NCBI GenBank assembly: GCA_050014195.1
Contig: JBEKDT010000013.1
Coordinates: 1-64,000 of the forward strand
Direction of reading: 5' to 3'
From: Desulfomonilia bacterium
GTDB lineage: Bacteria > Desulfobacterota > Desulfomonilia > UBA1062
Length of the DNA: 64,000 nt
Shown one piece after another: positions 34,947 to 49,835 of the stretch. Position 1 is the stretch's first letter; each line of letters begins with the position of its first letter. Under the pieces are notes generated by a model. That model was not told the origin of the DNA, searched no databases, and was given only the letters and a program-made list of their open reading frames with translations. A program made the translations under genes and the position numbers.

Positions 34947-35131
34947 CAGTTTGTCCTCCGGGAAAAAGATACTATCTTTTCTTTTAACGAAACTCCATAT
35001 ACCTCTATAAATAGATTTTATTCTAAGTTGATATATACACAACAACTTGGAGATATGGGAAGTTTAACTTGAAGTTATGAAAGAAATCAGTTGTCTTACC
35101 CGATACCCTACGGCTGATTACCATATTCTTA

Positions 35132-36208: not shown

Positions 36209-36640
36209 TCCCGAGACTCCAGAGTCTTGCACAGTCATTTCAATACCTTATATGGAATTATCGTTTATTATTATAATATACCACTAAAATTTATAGCAAA
36301 ATATGAGTATCTGTTAATGCATAGTTTTTTCATAGCAAAAAATATTCCTTAAATATGCATTTATAATTCATTGATATTGCGGTGATTATCTTATGATACT
36401 ATTACCTATTCATAACTGTAGGGAAAGTATATCCCTTATCAGGGAAAAACATTTCACACTCGGCACCCTGCCTAAAGAGGGTTTATGTTGACAAAAGACC
36501 AAGACTAAGGTCTTTAATGTCTTCAAATAAAGTTGTTCATATTATAAGAGAAAGAATTACTATGAAAACCTAACTGCGTAAATATGGAAATGAGTCTTCT
36601 TAAAAACTACACCATGCCGGGGCATACAGAAGGATCGTTT

Positions 36641-37105
36641 ATGAAATTATATAAGTGGCCTGTTCGATTTATTATTATTGTGTTAGGATTATCGGTTTGT
36701 TTATATATTTTTTGGCCTAACGTAACGTTAGCTACAGGACAAAACCTCAACCCGAGAGAACCTTTTCATACATCATTTTTAATTCAAAACAAATCAATTT
36801 ATCCGATCTATGATGTTAAATGTGATTTTATATTTAATACTATTGAGGATGATAACCATCATGTATTCAGCAAATTGTCGGCCAATATCGATACGATGAA
36901 TTTAGAAAGTCTGGGCCGAACAGAAAGCAGGCCGATCATTTTCAAAGTGGCAATTAACGGGTTGGAAAAGGGCATACAAGGAGCTCATATTACTTTATTG
37001 TTATCATACAAATTACCAGTTATCGGCATAAAAATTTCAAAAATTATTCCTTTCACCGTTGAAAGAACCTCTACAAATACATACGAATGGTCCGAAAGCC
37101 ATTGA
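36641..37105 (+). CDS. Hypothetical membrane-anchored protein
   Basis: ORF with N-terminal hydrophobic helix; AAGGA upstream of MKLYKW. Confidence 0.5.
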   Translation: MKLYKWPVRFIIIVLGLSVCLYIFWPNVTLATGQNLNPREPFHTSFLIQNKSIYPIYDVKCDFIFNTIEDDNHHVFSKLSANIDTMNLESLGRTESRPIIFKVAINGLEKGIQGAHITLLLSYKLPVIGIKISKIIPFTVERTSTNTYEWSESH

Positions 37106-37216
37106 TGCTCATTACAAATTAGCTGTATTATAGATTTTGCTTGGTATGATGGTTTTGATTCTGTTAAACAATGGAGACGTTTCCTTGATAATATCTCTCA
37201 AAAAGGAGGGACTGAT

Positions 37217-38107
37217 ATGATAAAAGGTGGAAATAACAAAAGGTTCCTCGCTGTTTTTATTGTCTCTCTGCTCCTTATTGCAGGGTGCAGTTCAAGTAAT
37301 GGTACTGCGAACATTACCAACCCATATGAAACACAAGATGCTTCTGGTGTATGGCTGGGATATATAGGCAATGCTTTTGTTATAGGCATCATTACAACGG
37401 ATGATAATGAAAATTATTCGGGACGCTTTATGGGCCAATATAATGAAAGCAAAGTATTCACGCAATTTTTAACCCCGGATGGGTCTTATCTGACACAAAC
37501 ACCTGAGACGGCTATCTATACGGGAACTCTTGAAGAATGTGTATGGGACACTACTGGCCCTGATTACTACAATAAATTGCCACTTCAGACACTATCAATA
37601 TTAAGCAGTGTATCTGCGAAAAGTGTTTTTGGAGGGCCGCTTTTCAGTTCAGCAGTATATAATGAACAACCTTATATTCCAGAGCAAATACAGACAGGAG
37701 AATTGATATTATATTATAACACCACCTATGATCTATCGCCGAATGTCAACAATCTTTCTGGGCAGTGGGAAATAACGAATATATTAACGAAAGGTAATAC
37801 CCTAATCTTAACAATAACACCCGATACGGCAGGTACTAATGGGACAACGCATATTTCGGGTAGTGACACGAAGGGTAATCAATTCGACGGGACAATTACT
37901 ATTCATGTTACCCCGGTGCCTCATAACATATATGATGTGAGCCTCAAGATGAATAACAGTATTGACCTCACCGGCCTTGTCACGTATGTACTGGAAGAAA
38001 CATCGGCAGGAGAAGGAATATCACTCCCACAAAAGACACTTGTTATCGGTGCAACAGACAAGGATAAGAACTATTCCTTAAGCGGACTTGCAAATAAAAA
38101 GGAGTAA
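37217..38107 (+). CDS. Hypothetical lipoprotein
   Basis: RBS AGGAGG, lipobox IAGC, Thr/Asn/Gly-rich beta-type body (SGVWLG, LSGQWE). Confidence 0.7.
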   Translation: MIKGGNNKRFLAVFIVSLLLIAGCSSSNGTANITNPYETQDASGVWLGYIGNAFVIGIITTDDNENYSGRFMGQYNESKVFTQFLTPDGSYLTQTPETAIYTGTLEECVWDTTGPDYYNKLPLQTLSILSSVSAKSVFGGPLFSSAVYNEQPYIPEQIQTGELILYYNTTYDLSPNVNNLSGQWEITNILTKGNTLILTITPDTAGTNGTTHISGSDTKGNQFDGTITIHVTPVPHNIYDVSLKMNNSIDLTGLVTYVLEETSAGEGISLPQKTLVIGATDKDKNYSLSGLANKKE

Positions 38108-38148
38108 AATCAATCGGTGAGCAGAAGGTATCATCATAATGTAAAATA

Positions 38149-38328
38149 TATAGGGTATCTCTAAAAATTGATGATCTCGAAAAAGAATGAGCGATCTCAT
38201 CCTCAGTGTCATTCCCGCGGAAGCTTCGAATCCAGTTATTTTGAGTAGTTCTGGACCTCCGCTTTCGCGGGGGTGACAATAAAAATAAATTCGTATGAAA
38301 TCCCCTGCATTTTTAGAGGTACCTTATA
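38149..38328. repeat. REP/MITE-like element, copy 1 (palindromic core 38207-38278)
   Basis: Core GTCATTCCCGCGGAAGC...CCGCTTTCGCGGGGGTGACA inside 20-bp outer inverted repeats TATAGGGTATCTCTAAAAAT / ATTTTTAGAGGTACCTTATA (2 mismatches). Confidence 0.8.
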
Positions 38329-38472
38329 GTGATTCAGTATGGTTGAAAGCCCGTGGTATCCGTGGAATGATGACCGGTTATAAGTAAAATATTTTTTGGA
38401 ACCCAGGTCACGTTAGTTGAAAAACTTTTCTCTGAAGCATGGCAATTTCTTTCCACTTTTCTTCGGCAGGAA

Positions 38473-38485
38473 CAATGCATTGATT
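38473..38485 (-). promoter_or_regulatory. IHF-binding site
   Basis: Minus strand AATCAATGCATTG matches WATCAANNNNTTR, about 30 bp upstream of the sigma54 -24 box. Confidence 0.6.
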
Positions 38486-38515
38486 ATAACTAATTGAAAT
38501 ATAGATATTATTATA

Positions 38516-38531
38516 TGGCAAGCTTATTGCT
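38516..38531 (+). promoter_or_regulatory. Sigma54 (RpoN) -24/-12 promoter
   Basis: TGGCAAGCTTATTGCT matches TGGCAC-N5-TTGCW with one mismatch and exact spacing. Confidence 0.8.
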
Positions 38532-38584
38532 ATTATCAAAGGCGTATGACTATCAGACACCTTTTGGGCCTGTGGGTTTATAAG

Positions 38585-39268
38585 ATGAATTGGAATAAGT
38601 GGATTAGAGGTTTCTTGACACTTATTCTTTCCATGGTTGTGATGATCATGTTATCCGCGCCCCTTTATGCTGATGTGAACGTCCAGGATCTGGAAATGGG
38701 GACCCACGATTATATCATTGACAAACAGCAGTCATTTAATTGTTCCATGGTCCAGATGAGTGATAATGAGCTTTCCGACGTGACTGCCGCCGGTTTTTCC
38801 AGTTTCACGTGGGATAATAGTATCCCAGATATTAGTGTCGCCACGGCATATCTCAATATCCAGACGAGCACGTTCACTGAGATCCAATCCCTTAAGATGG
38901 GTTATCATAATAGTGGCTGGGATGAAGACTGGACGAATGTTTCGCTTGGTTCATCAACGCAGGATCTTGTTTGCAAAGGGTTCACTATTCAGGCTAGTTT
39001 CTCAAACCTCACCGATCCGGCAACGAGAACACTCAACAGCCTCACAGTTGGCACCCCTTCGATGACCGGCCCCATCAGTGCCTACTTCAATTCGTTTACC
39101 GGGCATATAGGGAACGGTACAGATACAGGAGGGGTCGACTATACCCGGACAGACCTCTCAAGCTCCGGCACCGTCGTGAGGACGATCTATAGTAACAGTG
39201 ATAAGTTCTATATACAGCTTTCAAGCACAGGTTGGTTGTTTTACTGGAGAAATGGTACGCTCAATTGA
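38585..39268 (+). CDS. Secreted DUF6160/FilA-like protein 1 (divergent)
   Basis: Signal peptide (PLYA), MVQMSDNELSDVTAAG motif, Ser/Thr-rich beta composition; start chosen downstream of the sigma54 promoter. Confidence 0.65.
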   Translation: MNWNKWIRGFLTLILSMVVMIMLSAPLYADVNVQDLEMGTHDYIIDKQQSFNCSMVQMSDNELSDVTAAGFSSFTWDNSIPDISVATAYLNIQTSTFTEIQSLKMGYHNSGWDEDWTNVSLGSSTQDLVCKGFTIQASFSNLTDPATRTLNSLTVGTPSMTGPISAYFNSFTGHIGNGTDTGGVDYTRTDLSSSGTVVRTIYSNSDKFYIQLSSTGWLFYWRNGTLN

Positions 39269-39526
39269 GAAAGGCTTATAAAGAAGTTATGAAGACACAC
39301 AGGGCACTTACACTTAAAGTATGTAAATGCGATTCAATCGGGAGAGGGAGGTCTTTGCAGTGATTCTCCCAGCCCTGTGCATTTTATAAGGAAGGAAAAA
39401 TCGAAAAGGGGGTGATGCTTGGGTAGTAGGACTAAGTAGGACTAACCAATACAGACCAACAGGAAAAAAGGAAATGCATTAACAATGACGCAACTAAGAA
39501 AAAATAAAAAATGGAGGCAAAACGTT

Positions 39527-40756
39527 ATGAAGAGAGTATTGACTATTCTGGCTATTCTTCTCCTGCCCCTTTCCGTATGGGCAATGACCCCTGTCACTGA
39601 TTCCGACCTTTCCAATGTGACAGGCCAGGCTGGCGTGAGTATCAACCAGGATGTTATGATGAACATCCATATGGACGTCATGGCATGGGGTGATACTGAT
39701 GGCCTCGGTTTAGCAGGCATCGGCACCACTTCTGCACTTAAAACCGGTCTCAACCCATGGACCGACGTTACCACGGGCGGTTACATTGGTATCAAAGGCT
39801 TTGACATGGCTCTGAGGATAAAGGCACGTACCACTGATACATACGGTGCAGCCACTGGTTCAGACACGAACGCTGTTTATGGTGTTTATAACCCAACCAG
39901 TTATCCCGGCCTCAAGCCTCTGACCATCGATGTTGCGACTACGACTGCCGCCCAGGATCCCAACCTCTATGGCGCCGGCGTGACCTTTGTTCGCATCGGT
40001 CTTGGTTCCATGGAAATCGACGTGAGCGCAATGTCGTTTGATATCGGCCTCAGCTCACATGCTGGCGTTACTGCCACCAATGCCCCGACTCTTAATCAGA
40101 TTCTCGGCACCGTATCAATGGGTAACATCGGCATCTTCATCAGCCCCTACAGCTATGTTGACATCTACAATGGCGCCAGAGGAACAGGTTCTGGTGTAAC
40201 CTTCGGCATCCACTTCCAGATCGATCAGTTCAACATGGACTATATCTCATGGGGTGACAAGGATGGCTTTACCAACGTCGACACAAGCGATAATGCTGGT
40301 ATGCTACCAGGCTACACCAATACTAATCCGTTCCCCTGGGCCGCAGCAACTAAGGGCGGTTATATAGGGCTTGGCACGCTTAGGGTTGGTGGACCGATCA
40401 CGATCACAGGCACCGTGAATATTGACGTGGGTACTGTGACAACCGGTTACTATGCCTCGGCTGCCGCTATTCTGACCGGTGGTACAATAACAAATGTGCC
40501 GATGGTCCACATTACATTCGGGAATATGTCTGCTGCTGCTGGCGGACCCGCAGCGGGCCCAGCTTATGCTAACGGTGTAGGCCTTGAGGTGAATGTCCCC
40601 TCGATTATGGCAAACATAGCCCTTAGCGACACAGCAAATTTACTGAATAATTTTACTGGTTCCGTGCCGTCTGCAAATGTGTTGGGTGACATCTACATCA
40701 GCAACTTTAATTTCAAGATTATTAAAGGCAGCTGGGTAGACATCTTTGCCCACTAG
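39527..40756 (+). CDS. Secreted DUF6160/FilA-like protein 2 (probable major subunit, two internal repeats)
   Basis: RBS GGAGG, signal peptide VWA|MTPVTDSDLSNVTGQAGVSI, Gly/Thr/Asn-rich, ends LGDIYI...VDIFAH. Confidence 0.75.
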   Translation: MKRVLTILAILLLPLSVWAMTPVTDSDLSNVTGQAGVSINQDVMMNIHMDVMAWGDTDGLGLAGIGTTSALKTGLNPWTDVTTGGYIGIKGFDMALRIKARTTDTYGAATGSDTNAVYGVYNPTSYPGLKPLTIDVATTTAAQDPNLYGAGVTFVRIGLGSMEIDVSAMSFDIGLSSHAGVTATNAPTLNQILGTVSMGNIGIFISPYSYVDIYNGARGTGSGVTFGIHFQIDQFNMDYISWGDKDGFTNVDTSDNAGMLPGYTNTNPFPWAAATKGGYIGLGTLRVGGPITITGTVNIDVGTVTTGYYASAAAILTGGTITNVPMVHITFGNMSAAAGGPAAGPAYANGVGLEVNVPSIMANIALSDTANLLNNFTGSVPSANVLGDIYISNFNFKIIKGSWVDIFAH

Positions 40757-40768
40757 TTGATTACTTGC

Positions 40769-40810
40769 GAGGAAACAGGGGGGCTTTGTCTCCCCTGTTC
40801 CTCCTTTTAT
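40769..40810 (+). terminator. Intrinsic terminator / stabilising hairpin after subunit 2
   Basis: GAGGAAACAGGGG...CCCCTGTTCCTC stem followed by CTTTTATT. Confidence 0.75.
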
Positions 40811-40859
40811 TGATATGGAATGAAATGAGGATAAAGCGGAGGGATAATAAAAGGACATT

Positions 40860-41738
40860 ATGAAAAAAAACATTCTCCTATTTCTCGCAATCCTGATGCT
40901 GCCGGTTACCGCAGGTGCCATGACGCCTATCAGCGATCACGAGCTTTCGAATGTGACAGGCCAGGCCGGGGTGAGTATCAGCATGGATGTTATGATGAAC
41001 AGCACCTTTGGTTCATTCAAGTTTTCAGACACCGACAACGATCCTGTAAACTGGATCGAGTTCAACAACATAACAATCACAAGCCGATGGGAAACACTTC
41101 AGGGCAGCCCCCCAATTACCTTAGATATAGCTACCGGGAACAACATAGATAATACCGAGAGGACATGGGTTAACCTGGTTTTATCTCAGTATTCGCAGCC
41201 TGAAACATGGGATATCGGTAATTTCGTTTTCGTCAACCAGGACATCGGCAATCTCCAACTTGAAAATATGATGATGGCAGAGCCTGCTGTTTTGCGTTTC
41301 TCCGCGCATCCCGGCGTTGGAACATCAGGACTGGAATTTGAGTATTTGAGCAGTTGGATGGCCCAGGATATTTCCTATAATTATAATACATCTGGGGGCA
41401 ATCTCCAACTATCCGGCATACATTTTGCGGCATCAGCGAGCAGCCCCACCGATGACCCGAGCAATCCTTCTACCTGGCAGTTCACCGGATCGTTCCGCGT
41501 GGGAGATCTAATGGGAGGTAACATCCCTGTTGACAGCACCAACGCCTCTGTTCCTAACCCTGCAACCTTTGATGTAGGCACCACTTCAGACGGGTATACA
41601 TCCGTGTATCTTAATCTTCCGCTCAAGGGTACGATCAGGGTTGCGGATGTACAGTTCGGAGGTCAAGATCTCGGTCCTATCGCCATTGACGGTATTGTTG
41701 CGCACCATCTTTTTGTAAAGATCGGTGGAGCTAACTGA
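40860..41738 (+). CDS. Secreted DUF6160/FilA-like protein 3
   Basis: Signal peptide AGA|MTPISDHELSNVTGQAGVSISMDVMMN, near-identical to the N-terminus of protein 2. Confidence 0.75.
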   Translation: MKKNILLFLAILMLPVTAGAMTPISDHELSNVTGQAGVSISMDVMMNSTFGSFKFSDTDNDPVNWIEFNNITITSRWETLQGSPPITLDIATGNNIDNTERTWVNLVLSQYSQPETWDIGNFVFVNQDIGNLQLENMMMAEPAVLRFSAHPGVGTSGLEFEYLSSWMAQDISYNYNTSGGNLQLSGIHFAASASSPTDDPSNPSTWQFTGSFRVGDLMGGNIPVDSTNASVPNPATFDVGTTSDGYTSVYLNLPLKGTIRVADVQFGGQDLGPIAIDGIVAHHLFVKIGGAN

Positions 41739-41758
41739 CCATTCATTAGTCAGACCTG

Positions 41759-42523
41759 ATGCCTATTGTTATCGGCTTTTTTATCATATTGACTTTCCTT
41801 GGAACCATGTATCCCCTCAGAGACATTCCCAAGGGAGACATGCAGATTTTTCCCCATATGGCCGGGATAGAGAACCTCCCGCTTAGATATAATGTACAAC
41901 CATTTACTGAAGAATTCAATTTCAAGAATGTTGTGAAACAGCAATATGATTATAGCTGTGGCTCCGCTGCCCTTGCCACGCTTCTCAACTATTACCTTGG
42001 GGAGCAATTCAGCGAGCAGCAGGTAATTCAGGGCCTCATGCACTATGGCGATGCCGAGAAAATCCAGGAGCGAAGGGCGTTCTCACTGCTCGATATGAAA
42101 CGTTTTTGTGAGGTGCTCGGGTATAAAGCTGAAGGGTATAAAGCGGATCTCGATGATCTCAAGGCCTTACATAAGTCTGCAATTGTCCCCATAGAATTAA
42201 CAGGATACAAACATTTCGTCGTATTCCGCGGCTTCTATAAAGACCACATTTTTTTTGCAGATCCATACAGAGGCAATTCAAGCTTTACTATTGATAAATT
42301 TCTTGAGATATGGAGCCAGAATGTCATCTTCGTTGTATCGAGTGAGACCGTGCAGACGAATGCCCTTCGGTTGAAGAACGAAGACTTGCGAATCATCGAC
42401 TATGACTTCACAAAAGATGCAATAGCACAAATACCCATTCCCCAAACCATCACGGAGCAGCAGCGATTGATCGAATCTCTGGGCGGGAAAGTATTTAAGA
42501 CCCAAAATGGGAATGTATATTGA
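41759..42523 (+). CDS. Stand-alone C39 cysteine peptidase (FapD/FilB-like)
   Basis: QQYDYSCGSAALATLL (Cys), FSLLDMK, YKHFVV (His), ADP (Asp); N-terminal hydrophobic anchor; no ABC domain. Confidence 0.9.
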   Translation: MPIVIGFFIILTFLGTMYPLRDIPKGDMQIFPHMAGIENLPLRYNVQPFTEEFNFKNVVKQQYDYSCGSAALATLLNYYLGEQFSEQQVIQGLMHYGDAEKIQERRAFSLLDMKRFCEVLGYKAEGYKADLDDLKALHKSAIVPIELTGYKHFVVFRGFYKDHIFFADPYRGNSSFTIDKFLEIWSQNVIFVVSSETVQTNALRLKNEDLRIIDYDFTKDAIAQIPIPQTITEQQRLIESLGGKVFKTQNGNVY

Positions 42524-42611
42524 CGACACTTGATATTGTAAGATTAACGCTTTGTATTCGCAATTAAATAATGTATTAAATAAAATATTCATACTATGCG
42601 AGGGTCTATCA

Positions 42612-43679
42612 GTGAGACAAGCTTTGTTAGTAGGACTGATGGTCATGTTCATAATGGGTTCAAGCAGGGTTTTATATGCAGATGATCAGCCAAAGAATGA
42701 TAACTCCCAACAGGAGCTGCTTGATCGGATAGATACGCTGGAAAAGGAGCTGCAAAAGCTCGAGGAGGAAGGCAAGGCAAGAAAGAGCCTGGAAGTCACC
42801 GAAGAGGAAAAGGGTGAGAAAGAAAAAGAGGTGCTGGAGGCAGTAAGCAGGGAATATACCCTTTCGGCCAAAGGCACCTTGTCAATAGATTATGGTCTCA
42901 ATTATTCCTATTCCCCGAGTGAAACTATTTATACTACGGCACAGGCGCTCCAGTTGCAACGTGCTGTAAATCATACTATTACAAATTCCATTTACACCTC
43001 ATACAGTTTTCTGGACAACCTCACGACAAGCCTTAGCCTGCCCATTGTTTACCGTTATGACAAGGTGGGGACAGACCAAAGCCTTAGTGAAACAGATATC
43101 GGAGATATATCATTTGGGTTTGCCTTCCAACTCCCCCATCAGCTTAAAATACCTGGAGGTATTACTAGCACCTACAGCTTTGGCGCCGCATTTCCCACAG
43201 GCCGGAGCCCATACAAAATCAACCCGAATACCGAGCTCTCTACAGGTAGCGGAGAGTACTCGTATTCATTAGGGGGCAGCTTCAGCAAACAGATTGATCC
43301 TGTAGTTGTATTCTGGAGCCTTGGAATAGGATACCCATTAGGTCTCAAGAATCTCAATTACAAGATATCGGACACGTACACATTGGTTAAAGTAGACCCC
43401 CCACTTTCCTATAGTCTCAGCATGGGTATGGGGTATGCTCTATCATATGCCAACTCCATCAATATGTCATTCTCTTACGCATATGCACAATCAACAAAAC
43501 TGACCTATAAGGAATTAACATCACCTGTTAAAACGGGAGACAGTGTTTCTGCTTCATTTGGAGTGGGTATGGGCTTTATGGTTACACCCAAGACGACTGT
43601 ATCGGTCTCGCTTGCATACAGTCTGGTAAGTGCAGGGTTCTCGTTGTCCACCAGAATACCTTTTGATTTTGTGTTGTGA
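42612..43679 (+). CDS. OM transporter barrel with N-terminal coiled coil (FapF/FilC-like)
   Basis: Signal peptide, QQELLDRIDTLEKELQKLEEE coiled coil, IGDISFG, PTGRSPY...LSTGSG, IDPVVVF, C-terminal RIPFDF. Confidence 0.75.
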   Translation: MRQALLVGLMVMFIMGSSRVLYADDQPKNDNSQQELLDRIDTLEKELQKLEEEGKARKSLEVTEEEKGEKEKEVLEAVSREYTLSAKGTLSIDYGLNYSYSPSETIYTTAQALQLQRAVNHTITNSIYTSYSFLDNLTTSLSLPIVYRYDKVGTDQSLSETDIGDISFGFAFQLPHQLKIPGGITSTYSFGAAFPTGRSPYKINPNTELSTGSGEYSYSLGGSFSKQIDPVVVFWSLGIGYPLGLKNLNYKISDTYTLVKVDPPLSYSLSMGMGYALSYANSINMSFSYAYAQSTKLTYKELTSPVKTGDSVSASFGVGMGFMVTPKTTVSVSLAYSLVSAGFSLSTRIPFDFVL

Positions 43680-43692
43680 GGAGGTTAGTCAG

Positions 43693-45390
43693 ATGAAGAG
43701 ATTCCGCTTTACCTTCCTTTTCATCCTGATTTTAATGACATATTTACCTTCCACACTGTTTGCAGCCCTGTACGAACAGCTTGCCATCTCGGCCCTTGGC
43801 GGCTCCATGGGCAATGCTGTGACCGCATATCCGGAAGAAGCCGGTGCTTTGTCTATACATTACAACCCGGCAGGACTTGCGGATATCCCGGGTACGCGTT
43901 TTGATAACGGTCTTGGGATAGTCGAAACTTATCGACAGGTTACCTTTCATCAGGCCATCGACCCCATTACAGGCAAGCCCTGGGCACCGTTCGGTCAGAA
44001 TAACATTCCTGGGTTCAATAATGGGGTAGATCCGCTTAACGGTGTGAAAGCCAAGCAGTCAAGCGGATTTATGATTGTACCTTATATTGATTTTGATTTG
44101 CCATATCTTATAACACCCTCTATGGGCATCTCATATAAGCCGCCTGAGCCGCAATACTCCCGATGGACCTTTGGGTTTGGTCAGTTTGCTCCCTTTGGGG
44201 CAGGGCTCAAGAACTCAGCAAACAGTCCGTTGAGCTTCTTGGGCCAGGAGGCCTGGTTTGTGAGGATGAGCTTCATAACACCTGCTGTTGCCTATAAGCT
44301 TTCTGATACTGTCTCAATAGGGGCATCGGTGGGGGTTGGTCCGTCAATGTTCATGCTCGAGACAAATTTAAGGACCCCCAACACCATGGTCGCACTGACC
44401 GGTGCCCTTGGAAATGCGACGAAAGGTCTCGAGATCCCGGTGGTATCCGAGCTCACATTACCACCGCCCTGGTTCAACGGCGGAATGACACCATATACAC
44501 CCCAGGGTCATCTCATGCTGCAAGTGGAAGACTATATCACCACCTCTTACAACTTAGGTATTCTCTGGAAACCCTACGATTGGTTCTCCTTTGGGGCATG
44601 TTACCAGAGCGAGTCCGAAGCCAATATGACAGGAACTTTCAAGTTATCATACGGTTACCAATTCCGCAGGACGGTTGACTGGTTTGGCAGATCACCTCTG
44701 ACGATTGTTACAGCAGCCATTTTTGACTTGCCGACCCAGTCGGTACCTTACCAGGCAGGTAACGCCTCCATGGACCTGACTTGGCCGGCCCGCCTCCAGA
44801 TGGGCATAATGCTCAATCCCATTAAACAGGTGAAATTTACTTGTGATGCAAACTGGACAGACTGGGCCGTGCAGCCGGATTGGAAGTTCGTTTTTGATCA
44901 AAAGATCCAACTCTACCGTTTCGCTCGGATGCTTGGGTATCGGTATTCAACTGATACCCAGGTAATAACGCAAGACTTTAAGGACACCTGGAACTTGAGT
45001 TATGGCTGTGAGCTCAAGCCCGATGCAAAGCACACACTGCGTTTCGGGTATGACGCACGGCCGACGTCAGTCAGGAACAATCTCTTCGGGCCTTTGCCCT
45101 TCTCGGATATCACGATCTACTCTGCAGGCCTCGGGATCGTGGTAGATGACAAGCCCAAGCCCAAACCGCGGAACTTCAATGAACGCTTGCAACAGCTCAA
45201 TAATCCAAATGAAATAAACATTACGGTGAGTTACATAAAACTTGCTGATAAGACCGTCTTGAGCAACACCAGTAAAAACCTCAACTCCACGACTTTCACC
45301 GACATTGTTTATAATCCCTATTCAGGGCTCGATTGGACTCAGAAGATGCACCTATGGTGGTTTTCAATAGATCAGGTTTTCAAGTGGTAG
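43693..45390 (+). CDS. OmpP1/FadL-family OM protein (FilD-like)
   Basis: RBS GAGGAGG, signal peptide, SMGNAVTA...SIHYNPAGL, APFGAG, TPAVAYKLSDTVSIG, terminal W. Confidence 0.8.
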   Translation: MKRFRFTFLFILILMTYLPSTLFAALYEQLAISALGGSMGNAVTAYPEEAGALSIHYNPAGLADIPGTRFDNGLGIVETYRQVTFHQAIDPITGKPWAPFGQNNIPGFNNGVDPLNGVKAKQSSGFMIVPYIDFDLPYLITPSMGISYKPPEPQYSRWTFGFGQFAPFGAGLKNSANSPLSFLGQEAWFVRMSFITPAVAYKLSDTVSIGASVGVGPSMFMLETNLRTPNTMVALTGALGNATKGLEIPVVSELTLPPPWFNGGMTPYTPQGHLMLQVEDYITTSYNLGILWKPYDWFSFGACYQSESEANMTGTFKLSYGYQFRRTVDWFGRSPLTIVTAAIFDLPTQSVPYQAGNASMDLTWPARLQMGIMLNPIKQVKFTCDANWTDWAVQPDWKFVFDQKIQLYRFARMLGYRYSTDTQVITQDFKDTWNLSYGCELKPDAKHTLRFGYDARPTSVRNNLFGPLPFSDITIYSAGLGIVVDDKPKPKPRNFNERLQQLNNPNEINITVSYIKLADKTVLSNTSKNLNSTTFTDIVYNPYSGLDWTQKMHLWWFSIDQVFKW

Positions 45391-45458
45391 ATTGAATTTA
45401 GATATAAGGTTCATCACCGTAAAGCATACTCGGATCATTGAGGAGCACACAGAGGGAT

Positions 45459-45668
45459 TTCTCACCACGAAGGACACGAAGCATCAATTTGATGAACTCT
45501 CGACCCGGGTCATTGGCTGTGCCATCGAGGTACATCATATTCTAAATGAAGTTGGCAGGTGTTAAGACCGGCCTGCTGATCAACTTCAATGTGAAAGTGC
45601 TTCGGACGGGTGTTAAGCGTTTTGTCCTATGATCTTCTTCGTGCTCTTCGTGTCCTTCGTGGTGAGAA
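45459..45668 (+). pseudogene. Internally deleted GxxExxY gene flanked by 23-bp inverted repeats
   Basis: FDELSTRVIGCAIEVHHIL (N-terminus) joined out of frame to MKLAGVKTGLLINFNVKVLRTGVKRFVL* (C-terminus); perfect IR TTCTCACCACGAAGGACACGAAG at 45459-45481 and 45646-45668. Confidence 0.8.
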
Positions 45669-45795
45669 CAATAGGTTGGGAAAGGATGCAAACCATATTT
45701 CATGAGCTTGCTTCACAATAGCAAAACCTGTATAGGATAAATTGATCGTTATATCTGGTCATACTGAACTATCTGAGAAAAGGAGAAGGTCCAGC

Positions 45796-47304
45796 ATGAA
45801 AATTTCAATACACTATCTGGTTATAATCTGTGTATTTCTCTTTATGGTAAACGGGCCGGGCTTTGCGGCCGATAACACGATAATCAAAGAAGATGTATAT
45901 GTTGTTATAAAACCGATTCCGGGGTTTGGAATATATGCCAATTCAATGGTCCCTAGTCCCGATTCCAATCATTTGGCATGCGTTGCAAAGAAAGGGGATA
46001 AATATTGCACTATCTACGATGGAAAACCACTTACACTTTATGATTCGATTGCGAAAGGTACACCTACCTTCAGTCTTGATTCTGAACACATGTTATATAA
46101 AGCAAAAAAAAGGAATAAATGGGTAGTTAATCTAGATTCTAAAGAAGGAAAAACATACGCTGAGATCGGGATACCGTTTTTTACCCCCGATTGTAAACGG
46201 GTATATTATGTGGTTGAGGATTTGGGAAAACAATTTGTAGTCTTGGATGGGAAAGAGGGTGCCAAATATGATGGCATACCTCAAGAAAGGAACCTCACAT
46301 TCAGTCCGGATTCCAAACACATTGCTTATGCAGCATTTAAAAATAAGAAAATGATCGTTGTGTCGGACGGGAAGGAAGGGACGAGTTATGACCAGGTGTC
46401 TTCACCCCGCTTTAGTCCTGATTCAAAGGTATTAGTCTATCCTGCAGAGAAGAGTAAGAAGTGGCTTTTTGTAAAGAATGGAGTGGAGGATGGGAAGCAG
46501 TATGATACGATCGGCACATACACTTTTAGCCTTGATTCATCACATTTTGCATACTCTGCTAAAAAAGGTGACAAAAAATTCATGGTGCTTGACGGGAAAG
46601 AAGGGATTCCGTTCGATGATGTTGCAATGCCCATATTCAGTCCCGACTCTAAACAGCTGGCCTATCTCGGGATAGAAAATAAAAAATGGTTCATGGTATT
46701 CAACAATGAAAAAGGAAAGCCATATGATGAAATAAAAGACCTTAGCTTCAGCAGGGACTCGCTGCACCACAGCCTGACAGTAAGAAAAGGAAACAAGTGG
46801 TCCATTATTTCTGATGGCAAAGTAGGACCGAATTATGATGATATCGCTTTGCCGCTATATACCACTGATTCCAAACATCTGATTTATCTCACGAGTAACA
46901 ATAAAAAGGGGAGGATTGTTTTTGATGGGAAAGAAAGTCAACCGTATGATGTAGTATCACTCGTCGTATTCAGCAAAGACTCTCAACATATGATGTACAT
47001 GGCTAAAAAAGATGAGAAATGGTTTATCGTAAAGGATGGAAAAGAATCGGCCCACTATGATGGGGTTGCACTCCCTACATTCAGTCCTGATTCAAAGCAC
47101 TATGCATTTATCTGTTTGAAAAAAGGTGTATGGTCTATAGTATGTGACGGAGTGGAGGGGAAAGCGGAATTTGCCGGCTTCCTTAAAGACTCAAGTATCG
47201 AATTTGATTCGCCAACGCATATTCATATTCTTGCAATGCAGGTGGCGTCAGGAGGCACAACCCCTGAACTTAAATTTGTCAAGCTTACAGTAGATATAAA
47301 ATAG
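45796..47304 (+). CDS. Secreted beta-propeller repeat protein (PD40/TolB-like)
   Basis: RBS AGGAG, signal peptide, about 11 repeats of ~37 aa, FSPDSKH-x-AY-x-A-x-K...DGKEG-x2-YD. Confidence 0.8.
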   Translation: MKISIHYLVIICVFLFMVNGPGFAADNTIIKEDVYVVIKPIPGFGIYANSMVPSPDSNHLACVAKKGDKYCTIYDGKPLTLYDSIAKGTPTFSLDSEHMLYKAKKRNKWVVNLDSKEGKTYAEIGIPFFTPDCKRVYYVVEDLGKQFVVLDGKEGAKYDGIPQERNLTFSPDSKHIAYAAFKNKKMIVVSDGKEGTSYDQVSSPRFSPDSKVLVYPAEKSKKWLFVKNGVEDGKQYDTIGTYTFSLDSSHFAYSAKKGDKKFMVLDGKEGIPFDDVAMPIFSPDSKQLAYLGIENKKWFMVFNNEKGKPYDEIKDLSFSRDSLHHSLTVRKGNKWSIISDGKVGPNYDDIALPLYTTDSKHLIYLTSNNKKGRIVFDGKESQPYDVVSLVVFSKDSQHMMYMAKKDEKWFIVKDGKESAHYDGVALPTFSPDSKHYAFICLKKGVWSIVCDGVEGKAEFAGFLKDSSIEFDSPTHIHILAMQVASGGTTPELKFVKLTVDIK

Positions 47305-47343
47305 AAACAGCTCCGATCTGGTCGCATAATTTTACATTACTCT

Positions 47344-47467
47344 AGAGGCAATTGCAAAACTTAAAAAAGGTGTCACCCCCGCGAAAGCGGGGGTCCAGAA
47401 GTTTTTGAAAAGACTGGATTCGAAGCTTCCGCGGGAATGACGATCTTGGTCTTTTGCAATCGGCTCT
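47344..47467. repeat. REP/MITE-like element, copy 2 (core 47371-47441, inverted relative to copy 1)
   Basis: TGTCACCCCCGCGAAAGCGGGGGTCCAG...CTGGATTCGAAGCTTCCGCGGGAATGAC within outer IR AGAGGCAATTGCAAAA / TTTTGCAATCGGCTCT. Confidence 0.8.
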
Positions 47468-47531
47468 TTATATTATTCAATATTATATAAAACGGAGCAA
47501 TACTATATTTTATTATATACCAACTATAAAG

Positions 47532-49835
47532 ATGCGCAGTTATCGTTTTAGTACCCTATTATTTCTTATTTTTCTTGCTATTGTAGTTCTTGCTACAATT
47601 GCTCTTAGATATGCAGAACCTATAAATGATGGAGATATCTGGTTTCACCTCGCATATGGCAGATATTTTATTGAACATCATACCTTGACGGTAGATCATT
47701 CCATTTTCAGCTGGACCCCTGCTAAAAGCCATTGGATATATTGTGCATGGATACCCCAGACCATTTTTTATCTGCTCTATGAAACATGCGGATTCTCTAG
47801 TCTATATGCATTGCGGTATCTGGTCATTATCACGTTTCTATTTTTTGTATTTTTAATAGCAGGAAAGAATCGGGCTAAATTTTTACCATACATCTTGCTC
47901 ATATGCCTTATAGGCTTACTGATGGCTCCTGCAGGTCTGCGCATCAAGGCTGATCTCTTTTCATTTTTATTCATGACCACCCTTGTATTCCTGTGGTTCA
48001 GATTCAAGATCAACCCTGATAAAAGCTGGCCTGTTCTTTATTTGTTGCCAGTGCTGTTCTTGTTCTGGGTGAATTCCCATCCTGGTTTCATCTTCGGGGC
48101 AATATTTCTCAGTCTTGTCTTTACAGGAGAGATTATTAATCGACTTGCCGGATCATCAGAAAAAATCCATCAGAAGATCTTGATCCATTTATTCATCGCC
48201 TGTGTTTTAAGCATGGTTTCAGTCTTTATAACCCCTTATGGATGGGAATATCCGATTTCTCTGGTAAATGAGCTTATTTTCAATTCAAAAGCTTTTTCCA
48301 GGGATATCCGGTCAATCGCTGAATATCAGTCTATCTTTTTACCCCAAGCATCTCATTTTCACTTCATCGATTACCTCACGGCTTCATCGGTCGTGCTTGC
48401 AATGCTTTTACTTGCCCAACTGAAAAGACATCGCATCGATTGGGGGGTTTTGCTTGTAACCGCCTTCTTCATGATCCTTTATATGAAATACATGAGATTA
48501 ACCTATTACTGGGCAATTATCTTTGTATTTTTAGCAAGTTACTTAGCAAGACAGGTTTACCAGAATGATCCAGGACCTTTAATAAAAAAACCGCTGAAAA
48601 TTGCAATCCATGGCATTACCTTTATTCTTTTGCTATTTTTTGCCGTGCGAGCGCAATATGAAACTTTCTGCGCCCCAACTATTGGATTTAACCCTAATTA
48701 TATAAGCCCAGAATCAGAAGCAGGCTATATACGCCAGAACTTCCCACATATGCTCATGGGGAATGATTACTATTGTGGCTCTTATCTTCTTTGGTCACTA
48801 TGGCCCACAAAAAAAGTATTCATTGATGCACGATATTTTCCCTATAGTGAATGGTATGATGAAGCACATAAATTCGAAGGTAGTAAAGATAAAGCCACAA
48901 TAGAATCTCTATTAAAAAAGTATAAATGCGATCTATGGTGCCTCTCCTATTATACGCCGGTACTCCAATATTTCATTACATCGCCGGATTGGAGGCTTGT
49001 TTACTATGGGCCTTCAGCCTGCATTTTCCTGTCAAATAGAGTAGATATATCTCAACAAACCCGTTCCGTTGCTGAATCTATATCTAAAGTCGGCATATAT
49101 CAGGCCTATCTTATCACCATGTTTGCATTACGAGTAGGTGATCTTGAAGTTGCGAATAATATCGTGAAGGCAATGAAGCCAAATCCGATTTGTCCCTTGC
49201 AGGCTAGTTGGGCAATTAATGCCAAGCTCAATGTCGGCGATAACCTTCTCAACCAAGGGAAATATTATGATGCTATCGGAGTTTACTCTGATGCTATCAT
49301 GCAAGTTCAGCAGCATCCTTTACTCAGTCATCTTTGGGGCCATGACTTTTATACTGATCTTGTCATGATTCACCAGAATCTTGGCAATTCACTTATGAAG
49401 GTAAATCAAATTGGTGAGGCAATCAAGCAGTACAATCAGGCCTTGAAAATAAAACCCGACCTTGCCACTGCCCAAAGTAATCTTGCTCTTGCAATGGCTC
49501 AGATGACAAAGATTGATGAATCCATATCAAAGCTCGAATACATCTTAAAAAACAATCCCTATCCTCTGAAGATACTTAACTCTTTGGCTGTATATTATTC
49601 AATGAAGGGACAATACGATAGAAGTATAGATTATTTAATGAAAGAGCTAAACATAACCCCCGAGAACCCTGGGGTCTATTATAATTTAGCATGTATATAC
49701 TCCAGACAGAATAGATTGGAGGAGTCAAAAATATTTCTGGATAAGGCTATCAAGAAAGGTTTCAATGATTGGGATATGCTGAAAAAAGATCATGATCTGG
49801 ACAACTTGAGGAATACAACAAACTATAAAAACTAA
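47532..49835 (+). CDS. Polytopic membrane protein, putative GT-C glycosyltransferase, with C-terminal TPRs
   Basis: DGDIWFHLAYGRY, WVNSHPGF, ITPYGW, VFIDAR motifs; TPR tail. Confidence 0.7.
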   Translation: MRSYRFSTLLFLIFLAIVVLATIALRYAEPINDGDIWFHLAYGRYFIEHHTLTVDHSIFSWTPAKSHWIYCAWIPQTIFYLLYETCGFSSLYALRYLVIITFLFFVFLIAGKNRAKFLPYILLICLIGLLMAPAGLRIKADLFSFLFMTTLVFLWFRFKINPDKSWPVLYLLPVLFLFWVNSHPGFIFGAIFLSLVFTGEIINRLAGSSEKIHQKILIHLFIACVLSMVSVFITPYGWEYPISLVNELIFNSKAFSRDIRSIAEYQSIFLPQASHFHFIDYLTASSVVLAMLLLAQLKRHRIDWGVLLVTAFFMILYMKYMRLTYYWAIIFVFLASYLARQVYQNDPGPLIKKPLKIAIHGITFILLLFFAVRAQYETFCAPTIGFNPNYISPESEAGYIRQNFPHMLMGNDYYCGSYLLWSLWPTKKVFIDARYFPYSEWYDEAHKFEGSKDKATIESLLKKYKCDLWCLSYYTPVLQYFITSPDWRLVYYGPSACIFLSNRVDISQQTRSVAESISKVGIYQAYLITMFALRVGDLEVANNIVKAMKPNPICPLQASWAINAKLNVGDNLLNQGKYYDAIGVYSDAIMQVQQHPLLSHLWGHDFYTDLVMIHQNLGNSLMKVNQIGEAIKQYNQALKIKPDLATAQSNLALAMAQMTKIDESISKLEYILKNNPYPLKILNSLAVYYSMKGQYDRSIDYLMKELNITPENPGVYYNLACIYSRQNRLEESKIFLDKAIKKGFNDWDMLKKDHDLDNLRNTTNYKN

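Follow-up and report, generated by a model that had tools for sequence, protein, structure and literature searches.

The locus described here, from the genome of an anaerobic bacterium of deltaproteobacterial type, appears, on balance, to encode a Fil-type system related to Fap that secretes and assembles β-rich surface subunits and would depend on two successive leaders. By sequence comparison it is a distant variant of the named Fil system, which is itself putative.

Organization of the locus

The window is the whole 64,000-nucleotide stretch of DNA that was analyzed. The initial annotation placed six co-oriented genes at positions 38585–45390, and the open reading frames (ORFs) agree, all six lying on the + strand. 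A seventh gene, for a PD40 propeller, probably belongs to the locus as well; that annotation omitted it. Ten proteins from the window were scanned against Pfam and NCBIfam at E≤0.1. The features are as follows.

38516..38530, + strand: TGGCA-N6-TTGC, a -24/-12 element of sigma-54 type and putative promoter, located 55 bp before the S1 start
38585..39268, + strand: S1, a 227-aa secreted subunit in a class of its own, with signal peptide, pro-stretch of about 25 residues, leader and predicted all-β mature domain
39527..40756, + strand: S2, a 409-aa FilA-like DUF6160 subunit with signal peptide, leader, two internally duplicated modules and C-terminal ...VDIFAH (longest ORF from 39485)
40774..40799, + strand: 10-bp G+C-rich stem-loop, terminator- or attenuator-like, 18 nt past the S2 stop
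40860..41738, + strand: S3, a DUF6160 subunit of 292 aa that belongs to a second class, with leader and conserved C-terminal block GPxAIDGI
41759..42523, + strand: FilB/FapD-like stand-alone C39 cysteine peptidase with N-terminal hydrophobic anchor, identified by profile matches
42552..43679, + strand: FilC/FapF-like outer membrane barrel with N-terminal coiled coil, identified by profile matches; start codon uncertain
43693..45390, + strand: FilD-like outer membrane barrel of the FadL/OmpP1 family, identified by profile matches (ORF from 43630)
45796..47304, + strand: PD40/TolB-like β-propeller protein with signal peptide, a probable periplasmic accessory component (ORF from 45742)

Transcription probably starts at the sigma-54-type promoter before S1. 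The sequence TGGCA-N6-TTGC, which follows the sigma-54 -24/-12 consensus, occurs twice in the 64-kb window, where 0.72 occurrences are expected, a number that is not significant alone. The two nearest related loci (L002 and L003) have the element at the same position before S1, and neither it nor the roughly 45 bp on its upstream side varies among them. Hairpin strength differs among the subunit genes, with a minimum free energy of −23.4 kcal/mol after S2 versus −5.6 after S1 and −4.5 after S3. Hairpins of −20 kcal/mol or lower follow 52% of 88 subunit genes versus 3% of 79 FilB genes. The strong hairpin after S2 fits the expectation for a major subunit, and S2 is the probable holder of that role.

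The peptidase and the two barrels

The peptidase matches Peptidase_C39 in Pfam (PF03412; 69.3 bits, 3.7e-19, cut-off 22), and in NCBIfam it matches FilB (1.1e-62, 211.9 bits versus a cut-off of 475) and FapD (4.6e-37, 127.4 bits versus an equivalog cut-off of 330). An alignment of 15 peptidases has Cys67, His152 and Asp168 unchanged in every one, which together with the Pfam match bears out the proposal of a stand-alone C39 peptidase with an intact Cys-His-Asp triad. Its gene is the sole copy in the genome. The coiled-coil barrel matches FilC (1.2e-44, 153.2 bits versus 630) and FapF (3.4e-13, 49.2 bits versus an equivalog cut-off of 700) in NCBIfam and Phenol_MetA_deg in Pfam (5.5e-4), and its residues 175–372 match the FapF structure 5o67 in the PDB (E 1.2e-7). 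The FadL-like barrel matches Toluene_X in Pfam (PF03349; 116.6 bits, 1.3e-33, cut-off 29.7) and, in NCBIfam, FilD (1.6e-72, 244.5 bits versus 970) and the PorV/PorQ family (6.2e-6, 26 bits versus 90). The profile matches show the three machinery genes to be homologous to FilB/FapD, FilC/FapF and FilD/FadL; since the FilB, FilC and FilD matches all fall under their cut-offs, each is a distant homologue and not an equivalog. The PD40 propeller matches PD40 in Pfam (1.1e-10) and TmcD_fam (2e-37) and TolB (1.7e-8) in NCBIfam, the latter two being repeat-driven, and has one other paralogous locus only in the genome.

The Toluene_X and Phenol_MetA_deg matches would also suit a very different function, in which the two barrels (COG4313/Phenol_MetA_deg and FadL) take up hydrophobic compounds and S1–S3 are outer membrane β-barrels merely encoded alongside. 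A review also names an uptake channel as the closest structure to FapF. However, a catalytically intact C39 peptidase always adjoins these genes, and according to that review no report had placed a C39 peptidase alongside COG4313 uptake pores. This explanation is taken up again below with the subunits.

Distribution and relationship to the Acinetobacter fil operon

The initial annotation regarded the locus as a candidate novel system. That claim does not stand, because NCBIfam and Pfam already have names for the family and its distribution is wide: FilB-like proteins number 6068, and a FilB relative occurs in 593 species genomes. Among 80 related loci that were fetched (31 deltaproteobacterial, 49 gammaproteobacterial), the order FilB-FilC-FilD is kept in 72; of the eight exceptions, four are truncated at a contig end. 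Subunit genes and a peptidase gene occur with no adjoining FilC or FilD in L011, L016, L018 and L026. The PD40 gene is syntenic in 14 of the 31 deltaproteobacterial loci and in none of the 49 gammaproteobacterial ones. It follows FilD in some loci; in L009, L014 and L015 it separates the subunit genes from FilB; and in L005 and L010 it is on the opposite strand.

The window resembles the Acinetobacter fil operon (filABCDEF) in its succession of DUF6160 subunit, C39 peptidase, FapF-like barrel and FadL-like barrel, and the best NCBIfam matches of the three machinery proteins are FilB, FilC and FilD (the models are NF050077–NF050080 for FilA–D, NF033645 for FilE and NF050081 for FilF). The Fil/Fap assignment and the subunit-C39-barrel-FadL-like order of the initial annotation are thus upheld by profile searches and by the survey of gene order. 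The differences from Acinetobacter are considerable. The window proteins score far under the FilA–D cut-offs (35/220, 212/475, 153/630 and 245/970), as do those of the Pseudomonas locus L025 (42, 293, 320 and 531 bits); the window has three subunit classes where Acinetobacter has a single FilA; it adds the PD40 propeller gene; and phylum and lifestyle differ. Searches with the FilE and FilF models yielded nothing at E≤0.01, either in this 100% complete genome or in control genomes. NCBIfam gives the "pilus" label of Fil only as putative, and papers on the Acinetobacter proteins likewise describe them only as a "putative pilus assembly" system; an experiment demonstrating cleavage, export or a filament did not come up for this family.

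A second leader behind the signal peptide

The three subunits share a leader that follows the signal peptide, namely MVQMSDNELSDVTAAG in S1 (residues 55–70), MTPVTDSDLSNVTGQAG in S2 and MTPISDHELSNVTGQAG in S3 (residues 21–37). The common motif is xxD-x-E-L-x-x-V-T-G-Q-x-G, and its hydrophobic residues are spaced as in double-glycine leaders. A logo built on 94 domains in 89 ORFs has M/L/I/V at position -12 (89%), L/M at -7 (92%) and V/I at -4 (84%), with spacings of 5 and 3 residues, followed by T (71%), G (70%) or A (25%), Q (77%) and, two residues further, G (94%). Leader-bearing ORFs are found in 58 of the 80 loci (25/31 deltaproteobacterial, 33/49 gammaproteobacterial). Genome-wide, the leader HMM matches only 5 of 13542 ORFs, namely S2 and S3 together with three DUF6160 orphans. 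Several orphan S2-like copies are present elsewhere in the genome.

Canonical double-glycine leaders, as in PCAT and bacteriocin ABC exporters, carry G-G, G-A or G-S at positions -2/-1 and hydrophobic residues at -4, -7 and -12. The likeness to them consists in the C39 family of the peptidase, the E-L-x-x-V/I-x-G core and the -12, -7, -4 spacing. In the canonical register, however, the leader has G (70%) or A (25%) at -2 and Q (77%) at -1, and not one of the three canonical pairs; at -1, Fil has Q and FapE has K/R in place of G, A or S. The Fil leader also lies behind a Sec signal peptide and is predicted to undergo periplasmic cleavage by a free peptidase, the cargo is a β protein of 150–400 residues, and there is no ABC transporter in the window system. 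Rouse et al. (2017) quote the motif "lv-x-GG-kag-y-ga".

A complex of peptidase residues 45–215 with S3 residues 20–80 was modeled and scored 0.67, versus 0.01 for the best of three controls. The mark applied to this score is passed by 116 of 157 solved complexes and by 2 of 215 mismatched pairs, counts that hold only roughly because our own alignments were used for the complex model. Contacts agree between runs to at least 59%, and the partner pLDDT is at least 45 (45–47, so that the partner's fold is uncertain). The predicted interface comprises S3 residues 20–24, 26 and 29–37 and peptidase residues that include 65, 67–68 and 150–153. Solved C39-leader complexes exist, and the passing score may therefore reflect mere likeness to them. 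The conserved leader looks like the target of the system's C39 peptidase, and the proposal of protease maturation gains support from this conservation and from the docking model, which places the leader on the active site. Such docking also argues against the uptake explanation.

The subunits

Glycine, threonine, serine and asparagine make up 35–39% of S1–S3 versus 20–32% of other proteins; with the signal peptides, this confirms the description of these proteins as exported and Gly/Thr/Asn/Ser-rich. DUF6160 (PF19657, cut-off 27) is matched by S2 (44.3 bits, 2.3e-11) and S3 (65.4 bits, 5.7e-18), so that the suggested HMMER searches with DUF6160, Peptidase_C39 and Toluene_X all gave matches above the Pfam cut-offs. 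FilA (cut-off 220) is matched by S2 (9.9e-9, 35 bits) and S3 (22 bits), and the ESM Atlas clusters closest to S2 are FilA/DUF6160 (0.94–0.96). The two halves of S2 are related to each other (E 8e-6). S1 has no Pfam or NCBIfam match. Its family comprises 96 representatives at E≤1e-3; genes of this family occur in 14 of the 31 deltaproteobacterial loci and in none of the 49 gammaproteobacterial loci.

The three subunits had been called paralogous. S2 and S3 are 56% identical over their first 59 residues only; S1 and the S3 family have the signal peptide and leader alone in common (hhalign probability 96%, E 4.9e-9, 45 columns); and S1 has no BLASTP match to S2. These comparisons bear out the common N-terminal motif, whereas homology of the mature domains is unsupported. 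Although the subunits otherwise diverge, they keep two strands, one at the N-terminal side that follows the leader and one at the C-terminus that ends in [AG]-His. FilA/S2-type subunits terminate in [AG]-His, and the last residue is His in 54 of 88 leader ORFs (31 as GH, 17 as AH).

The AlphaFold2 models of S1 and S3 are confident and have no clear PDB match. The S1 model has a pLDDT of 87.4, with most blocks of residues 70–227 above 95, and that of S3 is an all-β meander (pLDDT 82.5, pTM 0.72). Neither has a Foldseek match at E≤1e-3. The best VIA Z is 5.2 for S1. For S3 the best VIA matches are outer membrane barrels (Z 8.7–8.3, rmsd about 7 Å, 168 aligned), headed by the NalP translocator (Z 8.7, rmsd 7.0 Å), values within the tool's range for models without a true match. 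In an ESM feature search, a "porin family" cluster was among the top three matches of S1 (0.91). Given these likenesses to barrels and porins, S1 and S3 may be membrane-embedded, and the S3 matches are what the uptake explanation would predict. That explanation is nevertheless very improbable: Foldseek found no barrel for either model at E≤1e-3, and the subunits end in His, Pro or Asn, not in the aromatic residue that serves as the C-terminal barrel-assembly signal.

The same machinery might instead deliver products that are not filaments. These would be leader-processed exoproteins, present as surface monomers or small oligomers (adhesins, matrix proteins or a surface coat) that are released or anchored by the FadL-like barrel. 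The mature domains of S1–S3 have no detectable homology to one another, as in leader-plus-cargo systems, the S1 and S3 models are predicted compact β domains, and the pilus label of Fil is a putative one. Against this, divergent subunits retain the N-terminal strand behind the leader as well as an [AG]-His strand that is strictly C-terminal, the genome has several orphan S2-like copies, and the combination of one hairpin-followed gene with minor genes resembles pilus operons. We regard non-filament products as unlikely, although they are the most credible of the alternatives.

Comparison with Fap and other systems

Pseudomonas Fap (fapABCDEF) has in common with the window a periplasmic stand-alone C39 peptidase, a coiled-coil 12-stranded barrel, and a leader motif behind the signal peptide that FapE shares with the window subunits. 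In FapE the motif [DE]x[DE]Lxx[LVI]xG directly follows the signal peptide in three of three fap operons (background 22 of 13542 ORFs), and with hhalign both subunit profiles select exactly this stretch. Rouse et al. (2017) detected no peptides belonging to the ~70 N-terminal residues of FapE, which they name as the likeliest FapD target. The leader is on every window subunit, whereas in Fap it is seen in FapE; when two fap loci were searched with the leader HMM, none of their 84 ORFs, among them FapB and FapC, matched at E≤10. The window also differs in its additional FadL-like barrel.

The FapD-like and FapF-like proteins and the leader shared with FapE could point to a functional amyloid, with subunits exported unfolded to form cross-β fibrils. 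FapA, FapB, FapC and FapE, however, have no family match at E≤0.1 among the ten proteins scanned, with models that detect the true fap operon L094. No imperfect N/Q repeats were remarked in the first reading of the sequence, and the subunits are predicted to be folded, the AlphaFold2 models being confident globular β folds rather than disordered or amyloid-repeat chains. True Fap and Fil-like loci moreover coexist as separate systems in three of five Pseudomonas genomes. An amyloid is thus improbable, if slightly less so than an uptake function.

PorV, a FadL-family shuttle of the type IX secretion system, offers an analogy only: a FadL-type barrel is encoded with a protein exporter, and the weak PorV/PorQ match is repeated in the FilD-like barrel of L025 (1.1e-8). 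The window match is 26 bits against 90, and no other type IX parts are among the scanned proteins. Type IV pilin, usher and chaperone domains have no Pfam or NCBIfam family match at E≤0.1 in the ten proteins, consistent with the reported absence of such motifs.

Proposed mechanism and implications

In the Fil-type system favored here, S1, S2 and S3 would traverse the inner membrane via Sec. The membrane-anchored periplasmic C39 peptidase would then recognize the leader by its hydrophobic residues at -12, -7 and -4 and the following G-Q, and would cleave within or right behind T-G-Q-A-G. The matured subunit, probably still unfolded, would pass through a trimeric FapF-like barrel. From analogy and synteny, the FadL-like barrel may be an acceptor or anchor in the manner of PorV, and the PD40 propeller may serve in the periplasm as a holdase or adaptor. 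Once outside the cell, the subunits would fold to open β-sheets and associate through two strands, the newly created N-terminal one (G-V-S-I...) and the C-terminal one with its final [AG]-His, with S2 as major subunit and S1 and S3 as minor ones. We infer that the products form a filament.

More tentatively, and with less confidence than in the assignment itself, Fil and Fap may represent one widespread outer membrane export pathway. To enter it, a protein would need a second leader, double-glycine-like but non-canonical (D-x-E-L-x-x-V/L-x-G-x), which lies behind the Sec signal and which a free C39 peptidase removes in the periplasm. The matured Fil subunits would have folds that lack a solved counterpart and would polymerize head to tail via the unmasked N-terminal strand and the [AG]-His C-terminal strand into a new class of β-sheet surface fiber, of which the deltaproteobacterial version would have three subunit classes and a PD40 propeller.

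Gene content and family assignment of the locus

The six co-oriented ORFs that the initial annotation had placed at 38585..45390 are all present, and the family matches support the locus as a distant variant of the Fil system, with three subunits and a PD40 gene, and as a relative of the Pseudomonas Fap system. The genes and nearby elements are as follows.

Features of the Fil-like locus (bits, Pfam; E-values, NCBIfam)
38516-38530: TGGCA-N6-TTGC element, putative promoter, 55 bp before the S1 start
38585-39268, +: S1, subunit with signal peptide; without a Pfam family
39527 (likely start; ORF from 39485) to 40756, +: S2, subunit with signal peptide; DUF6160 44.3 bits, FilA 9.9e-9
40774-40799: hairpin behind S2, 10-bp stem, -23.4 kcal/mol
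40860-41738, +: S3, subunit with signal peptide; DUF6160 65.4 bits
41759-42523, +: FilB-like C39 peptidase, 254 aa; Peptidase_C39 69.3 bits, FilB 1.1e-62, FapD 4.6e-37
42552-43679, +: FilC-like barrel protein (FapF-like, coiled-coil), 375 aa; FilC 1.2e-44, FapF 3.4e-13
43693-45390, +: FilD-like barrel protein (FadL-like), 565 aa; Toluene_X/FadL 116.6 bits, FilD 1.6e-72
45796-47304, +: PD40/TolB-like propeller with signal peptide (PD40 gene), next gene downstream of the FadL-like barrel gene

The proposed Fil/Fap-like assignment holds. FilB and FilC are the best NCBIfam matches of the peptidase and the 375-aa barrel, FapD and FapF are the second-best, FilD is the best for the 565-aa barrel, and the solved FapF structure 5o67 is matched by the 375-aa barrel at E 1.2e-7. 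All Fil/Fap NCBIfam scores are far under the curated cut-offs, so the window proteins are distant homologues and not equivalogs. The catalytic triad described as intact (Cys67, His152 and Asp168) is invariant in 15 of 15 aligned relatives of the peptidase, and the G+T+S+N content of S1-S3, 35-39%, agrees with their description as Gly/Thr/Asn/Ser-rich. As for the claim of a novel system, what stands is the distant variant with three subunits and a PD40 gene; Fil is already named and its relatives are common. The name FilA was reportedly first given to the subunit of the thick pili of Acinetobacter BD413. Models of FilE and FilF found no match in the window's genome, in a search without a positive control, and an Rfam scan over 35000-48000 gave nothing at E≤0.1.

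The TGGCA-N6-TTGC element occurs twice in the window against 0.72 expected, a count that is not significant alone. Together with about 45 bp upstream, it is invariant at the same position in the two nearest loci from other genomes (L002 and L003), the peptidase of L003 being only 53% identical to that of the window. Upstream of the locus lie genes for an OmpW/beta-barrel-like protein (35132-36238, -, 368 aa), a membrane protein (36584-37105, 173 aa) and a lipoprotein with an LIAGC lipobox (37217-38107, 296 aa); the OmpW-like and lipoprotein genes have the same place in L002 and L003 only. A 1088-aa regulator is encoded 3.5 kb upstream (31779-35045, -); it consists of some eight PAS-type repeats in tandem, with a LuxR-type HTH at the C-terminus. 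A LuxR/MalT-type regulator likewise precedes the Fil-like locus of a Pseudomonas genome (L025).

Distribution, gene order and the PD40 component

Relatives of the FilB-like peptidase number 6068 at E≤1e-3 in the protein collection, and a scan of species genomes found at least 593 stretches encoding one. Of 401 genomes sampled from the window's phylum, 37 contain a FilB-like match at E≤1e-30; the gene is single copy in the window's genome. The best 80 of the at least 593 stretches were compared. They comprise 31 loci of deltaproteobacterial type (Smithella, Syntrophaceae, Desulfobacteraceae, Geobacteraceae and Desulfoluna) and 49 from Gammaproteobacteria (Pseudomonas, Marinobacter, Oleiphilaceae, Kistimonas and others). 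The order subunit-C39-barrel-FadL-like proposed for the locus is borne out by this survey, in which consecutive FilB-FilC-FilD genes are kept in 72 of the 80 best loci. Four of the other eight stop at a contig edge, and four (L011, L016, L018 and L026, of Syntrophaceae/Smithella type) have unrelated downstream genes. These four have the C39 peptidase and as many as five leader-bearing subunit genes in tandem, and in L016 purL-like, RmuC and histidine kinase genes take the expected FilC/FilD place. The barrel genes of these four may lie at other sites of their genomes.

Among the best 80 loci, a PD40 gene accompanies 14 of the 31 deltaproteobacterial loci versus none of the 49 gammaproteobacterial ones. 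It follows FilD in some loci, lies between the subunits and FilB in L009, L014 and L015, and has the reverse orientation in L005 and L010. Because of this synteny, and because the window's genome has only one other paralogous PD40 locus, the propeller is counted as a probable seventh component. S1-family genes are likewise found in 14 of the 31 deltaproteobacterial loci and in none of the 49 gammaproteobacterial loci, which have one short FilA-like subunit each. Behind the PD40 gene, 47454-49835 (+) encodes a protein of 793 aa that has many membrane helices in its N-terminal part and TPR-like repeats in its C-terminal part. The product of the gene after FilD in L025 (10409-11560) has 383 aa, a MalM domain (8.5e-27) and DUF4124; it has no match to the FilE/FilF models and is not a PD40 protein.

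A leader shared by the subunits

The claim of three paralogous subunits with a common N-terminal motif holds for the motif; the bodies of S1-S3 are without detectable similarity. In BLASTP, S2 and S3 are 56% identical across their first 59 residues and unrelated beyond, and S1 does not match S2. Profile comparison links the S1 family (48 sequences) to the S3 family (28 sequences) with a probability of 96% and an E-value of 4.9e-9, in a match confined to the signal peptide and the residues that follow it; the latter are here termed the leader. In the window's S1 and its nearest relatives about 25 additional residues separate signal peptide and leader.

An HMM of the leader, iterated on the loci, collected 94 domains from 89 ORFs. 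Behind the signal peptidase site its logo has M, L, I or V (89%) and, two residues on, D (65%) or E (13%). Three positions after that stands L (77%) or M (15%), and after three more V (55%) or I (29%). The core reads T (71%), G (70%) or A (25%), Q (77%), A/D/E, G (94%); after it come I/V, S, I (78%) and, further on, Y/W, x, D (80%), x, D (70%). Between the three hydrophobic positions the distances are 5 and 3 residues. Double-glycine leaders have hydrophobic residues at positions -12, -7 and -4; the Fil-type leader is alike in this spacing and has, in that register, G at -2 and Q at -1.

The leader HMM is specific: of the 13542 ORFs in the whole genome with at least 70 aa it matches 5, namely S2, S3 and three orphan DUF6160 genes. 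The orphans (C12:141476-141892, C2:119918-120538 and C22:29237-29815) lie on other contigs, far from the single FilBCD locus, and have the same signal peptide and leader. Two (138 and 206 aa) are short S2-like copies matching the N-terminal module of S2, and the third has 192 aa and the C-terminus ...VSVTAH. Perhaps the three encode spare or variant subunits, or else are remnants.

Model of the peptidase with the leader

Peptidase residues 45-215 and S3 residues 20-80, each with its own alignment, were modelled as a complex. The complex score is 0.67, and the best of three controls reached 0.01. In the tool's calibration 116 of 157 solved complexes attained the score mark, as did 2 of 215 mismatched pairs; these counts are only rough here because own alignments were supplied. 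At least 59% of contacts agree across runs, with a partner pLDDT of at least 45. The S3 side of the modelled interface (residues 20-24, 26 and 29-37) is exactly the leader. The peptidase side (residues 65, 67-68, 105-114, 125-129, 150-153 and 186-191) includes the catalytic Cys67 and His152. C39 domains have already been solved together with leader peptides, and the result is therefore taken as likeness to a C39 leader and not as proof of cutting: to the model, the S3 stretch looks like such a leader, while cleavage itself is beyond its output, from which the scissile bond is not readable.

Subunit folds, C-termini and the major subunit

AF2 models, calculated with alignments, suggest that S3 (pLDDT 82.5, pTM 0.72) is an up-and-down beta meander of roughly 20 strands and that S1 is also well defined (pLDDT 87.4; residues 70-227 mostly >95). 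Foldseek found nothing at E≤1e-3 in the PDB for either model, and none among viral structures for S3. In the wider VIA-align comparison the best matches of S3 are outer-membrane barrels (NalP translocator, Z 8.7, rmsd 7.0 Å, 168 aligned; CymA and BrkA, Z 8.3), and that of S1 is LptD (Z 5.2). Z-scores of 7-8 are typical of models without a true match, and matches of this kind (Z 8.7 at about 7 Å; Z 5.2) are too weak to name either fold. A cave 'pilus-like-alpha' entry (9xfv; probability 0.20, Z 3.4) was weak and so was dropped as a relative of the subunits. The S3 profile matched PDB sequences only at VacA p55 (E 0.0031), treated as compositional, and the S1 profile gave nothing under E 0.06. 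The models are read as curved antiparallel sheets without a clear solved counterpart.

That S1-S3 are ordinary outer-membrane barrel proteins is a possible alternative, which the barrel matches of S3 would favour at scores inside the range of unmatched models. The barrel-assembly signal is a C-terminal aromatic residue, however, and the subunits lack it; they also carry the leader, and their association with the peptidase is constant across loci. These three features argue against ordinary outer-membrane proteins.

Their C-termini fall into classes. Among 88 leader-bearing ORFs, 54 end in His (GH in 31, AH in 17) behind an alternating hydrophobic strand. They make up the FilA/S2 class, to which the window's S2 belongs with its C-terminal ...VDIFAH. 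Twelve of the 88, of the S3 class, end in Pro and have the block F-G-P-x-A-I-D-G-I-x-V-H-R-L; the window's S3 ends in ...KIGGAN. Strong 3' hairpins are far commoner at subunit than at machinery genes.

Best hairpins after genes of the compared loci
Subunit genes: n = 88; median -21.3 kcal/mol; 52% at ≤-20
FilB genes: n = 79; median -11.7 kcal/mol; 3% at ≤-20
FilC genes: n = 72; median -15.1 kcal/mol; 17% at ≤-20
FilD genes: n = 67; median -16.0 kcal/mol; 25% at ≤-20

The hairpin behind S2 is the only strong one among the window's locus genes. S2 also consists of two copies of one module (...W-G-D-x-D-G ... G-G-Y-I-G...), related to each other at E 8e-6. The hairpin, the duplication and the orphan S2-like copies together point to S2 as the major subunit. 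In L002 the region matching S2 is two separate ORFs.

Relationship to Fap

Of five Pseudomonas genomes with a Fil-like locus that were searched, three also have a true FapD (above the cut-off), so Fap and Fil-like are separate, parallel systems. The genomes with both a fap operon and a Fil-like locus are G401, G402 and G404, those of L050, L025 and L063. In all three fap operons compared (L093, L103 and L094, the last a complete fapABCDEF operon by NCBIfam), a regular expression finds [DE]x[DE]Lxx[LVI]xG directly behind the FapE signal peptide, for example ...SDQELSQLRGRY....

FapE genes with the leader-like motif
L093:5422-6171, +
L094:3744-4538, -
L103:3091-3846, -

The three FapE are orthologues, so the motif counts as one family-level observation; its background in the window's genome is 22 of 13542 ORFs (residues 15-70). 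Both subunit profiles pick the same stretch of FapE in hhalign (14 columns, P about 0.008), and the leader HMM finds nothing in the fap loci at E≤10. The resemblance, from the regular expression and these 14 columns, is suggestive and would fit FapE as a substrate of FapD. The passages on processing in Rouse et al. (2017, PMC5557850) note that Fap proteins are without a canonical C39 sequence and that no peptides were seen from the first ~70 residues of FapE, and call the FapD target unclear with FapE the likeliest candidate. The corresponding part of a 2018 review (PMC6173800) agrees and reports that homologues of fapD and fapF are also found side by side in five other phyla; a 2026 preprint gives the role of FapD only as 'precursor processing'. 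No statement of a leader common to Fil subunits and FapE was found in the literature searched on Fil, DUF6160 and FilA pili.

Proposed mechanism and significance

Homology, gene order and the shared leader support the overall interpretation of the locus as a Fil/Fap-like secretion-assembly system, its product being a putative filament. From the parts list and the motifs we infer a route of cleavage, export and filament formation. The subunits would be exported by Sec, and the C39 peptidase would remove the leader in the periplasm. The FapF-like barrel would then serve as the passage, with the FadL-like barrel assisting, and the conserved terminal strands would join the subunits head-to-tail.

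The literature names the Fil system but gives it no mechanism, and searches on FilA-FilD/FilF, DUF6160 and Acinetobacter pili found no mechanistic paper. A leader that is common to Fil-type subunits and, suggestively, FapE, and that is modelled on the catalytic Cys and His, offers one testable handle on both the FapD target and the Fil mechanism. The system is common, with a FilB relative in at least 593 species genomes and in 37 of the 401 sampled from the window's phylum. Since the PDB holds no counterpart of the confidently predicted subunit folds, the structure of a fibre, once solved, would probably establish a new type of surface appendage in bacteria, that of environmental anaerobes as well as of Pseudomonas, Marinobacter and Acinetobacter.
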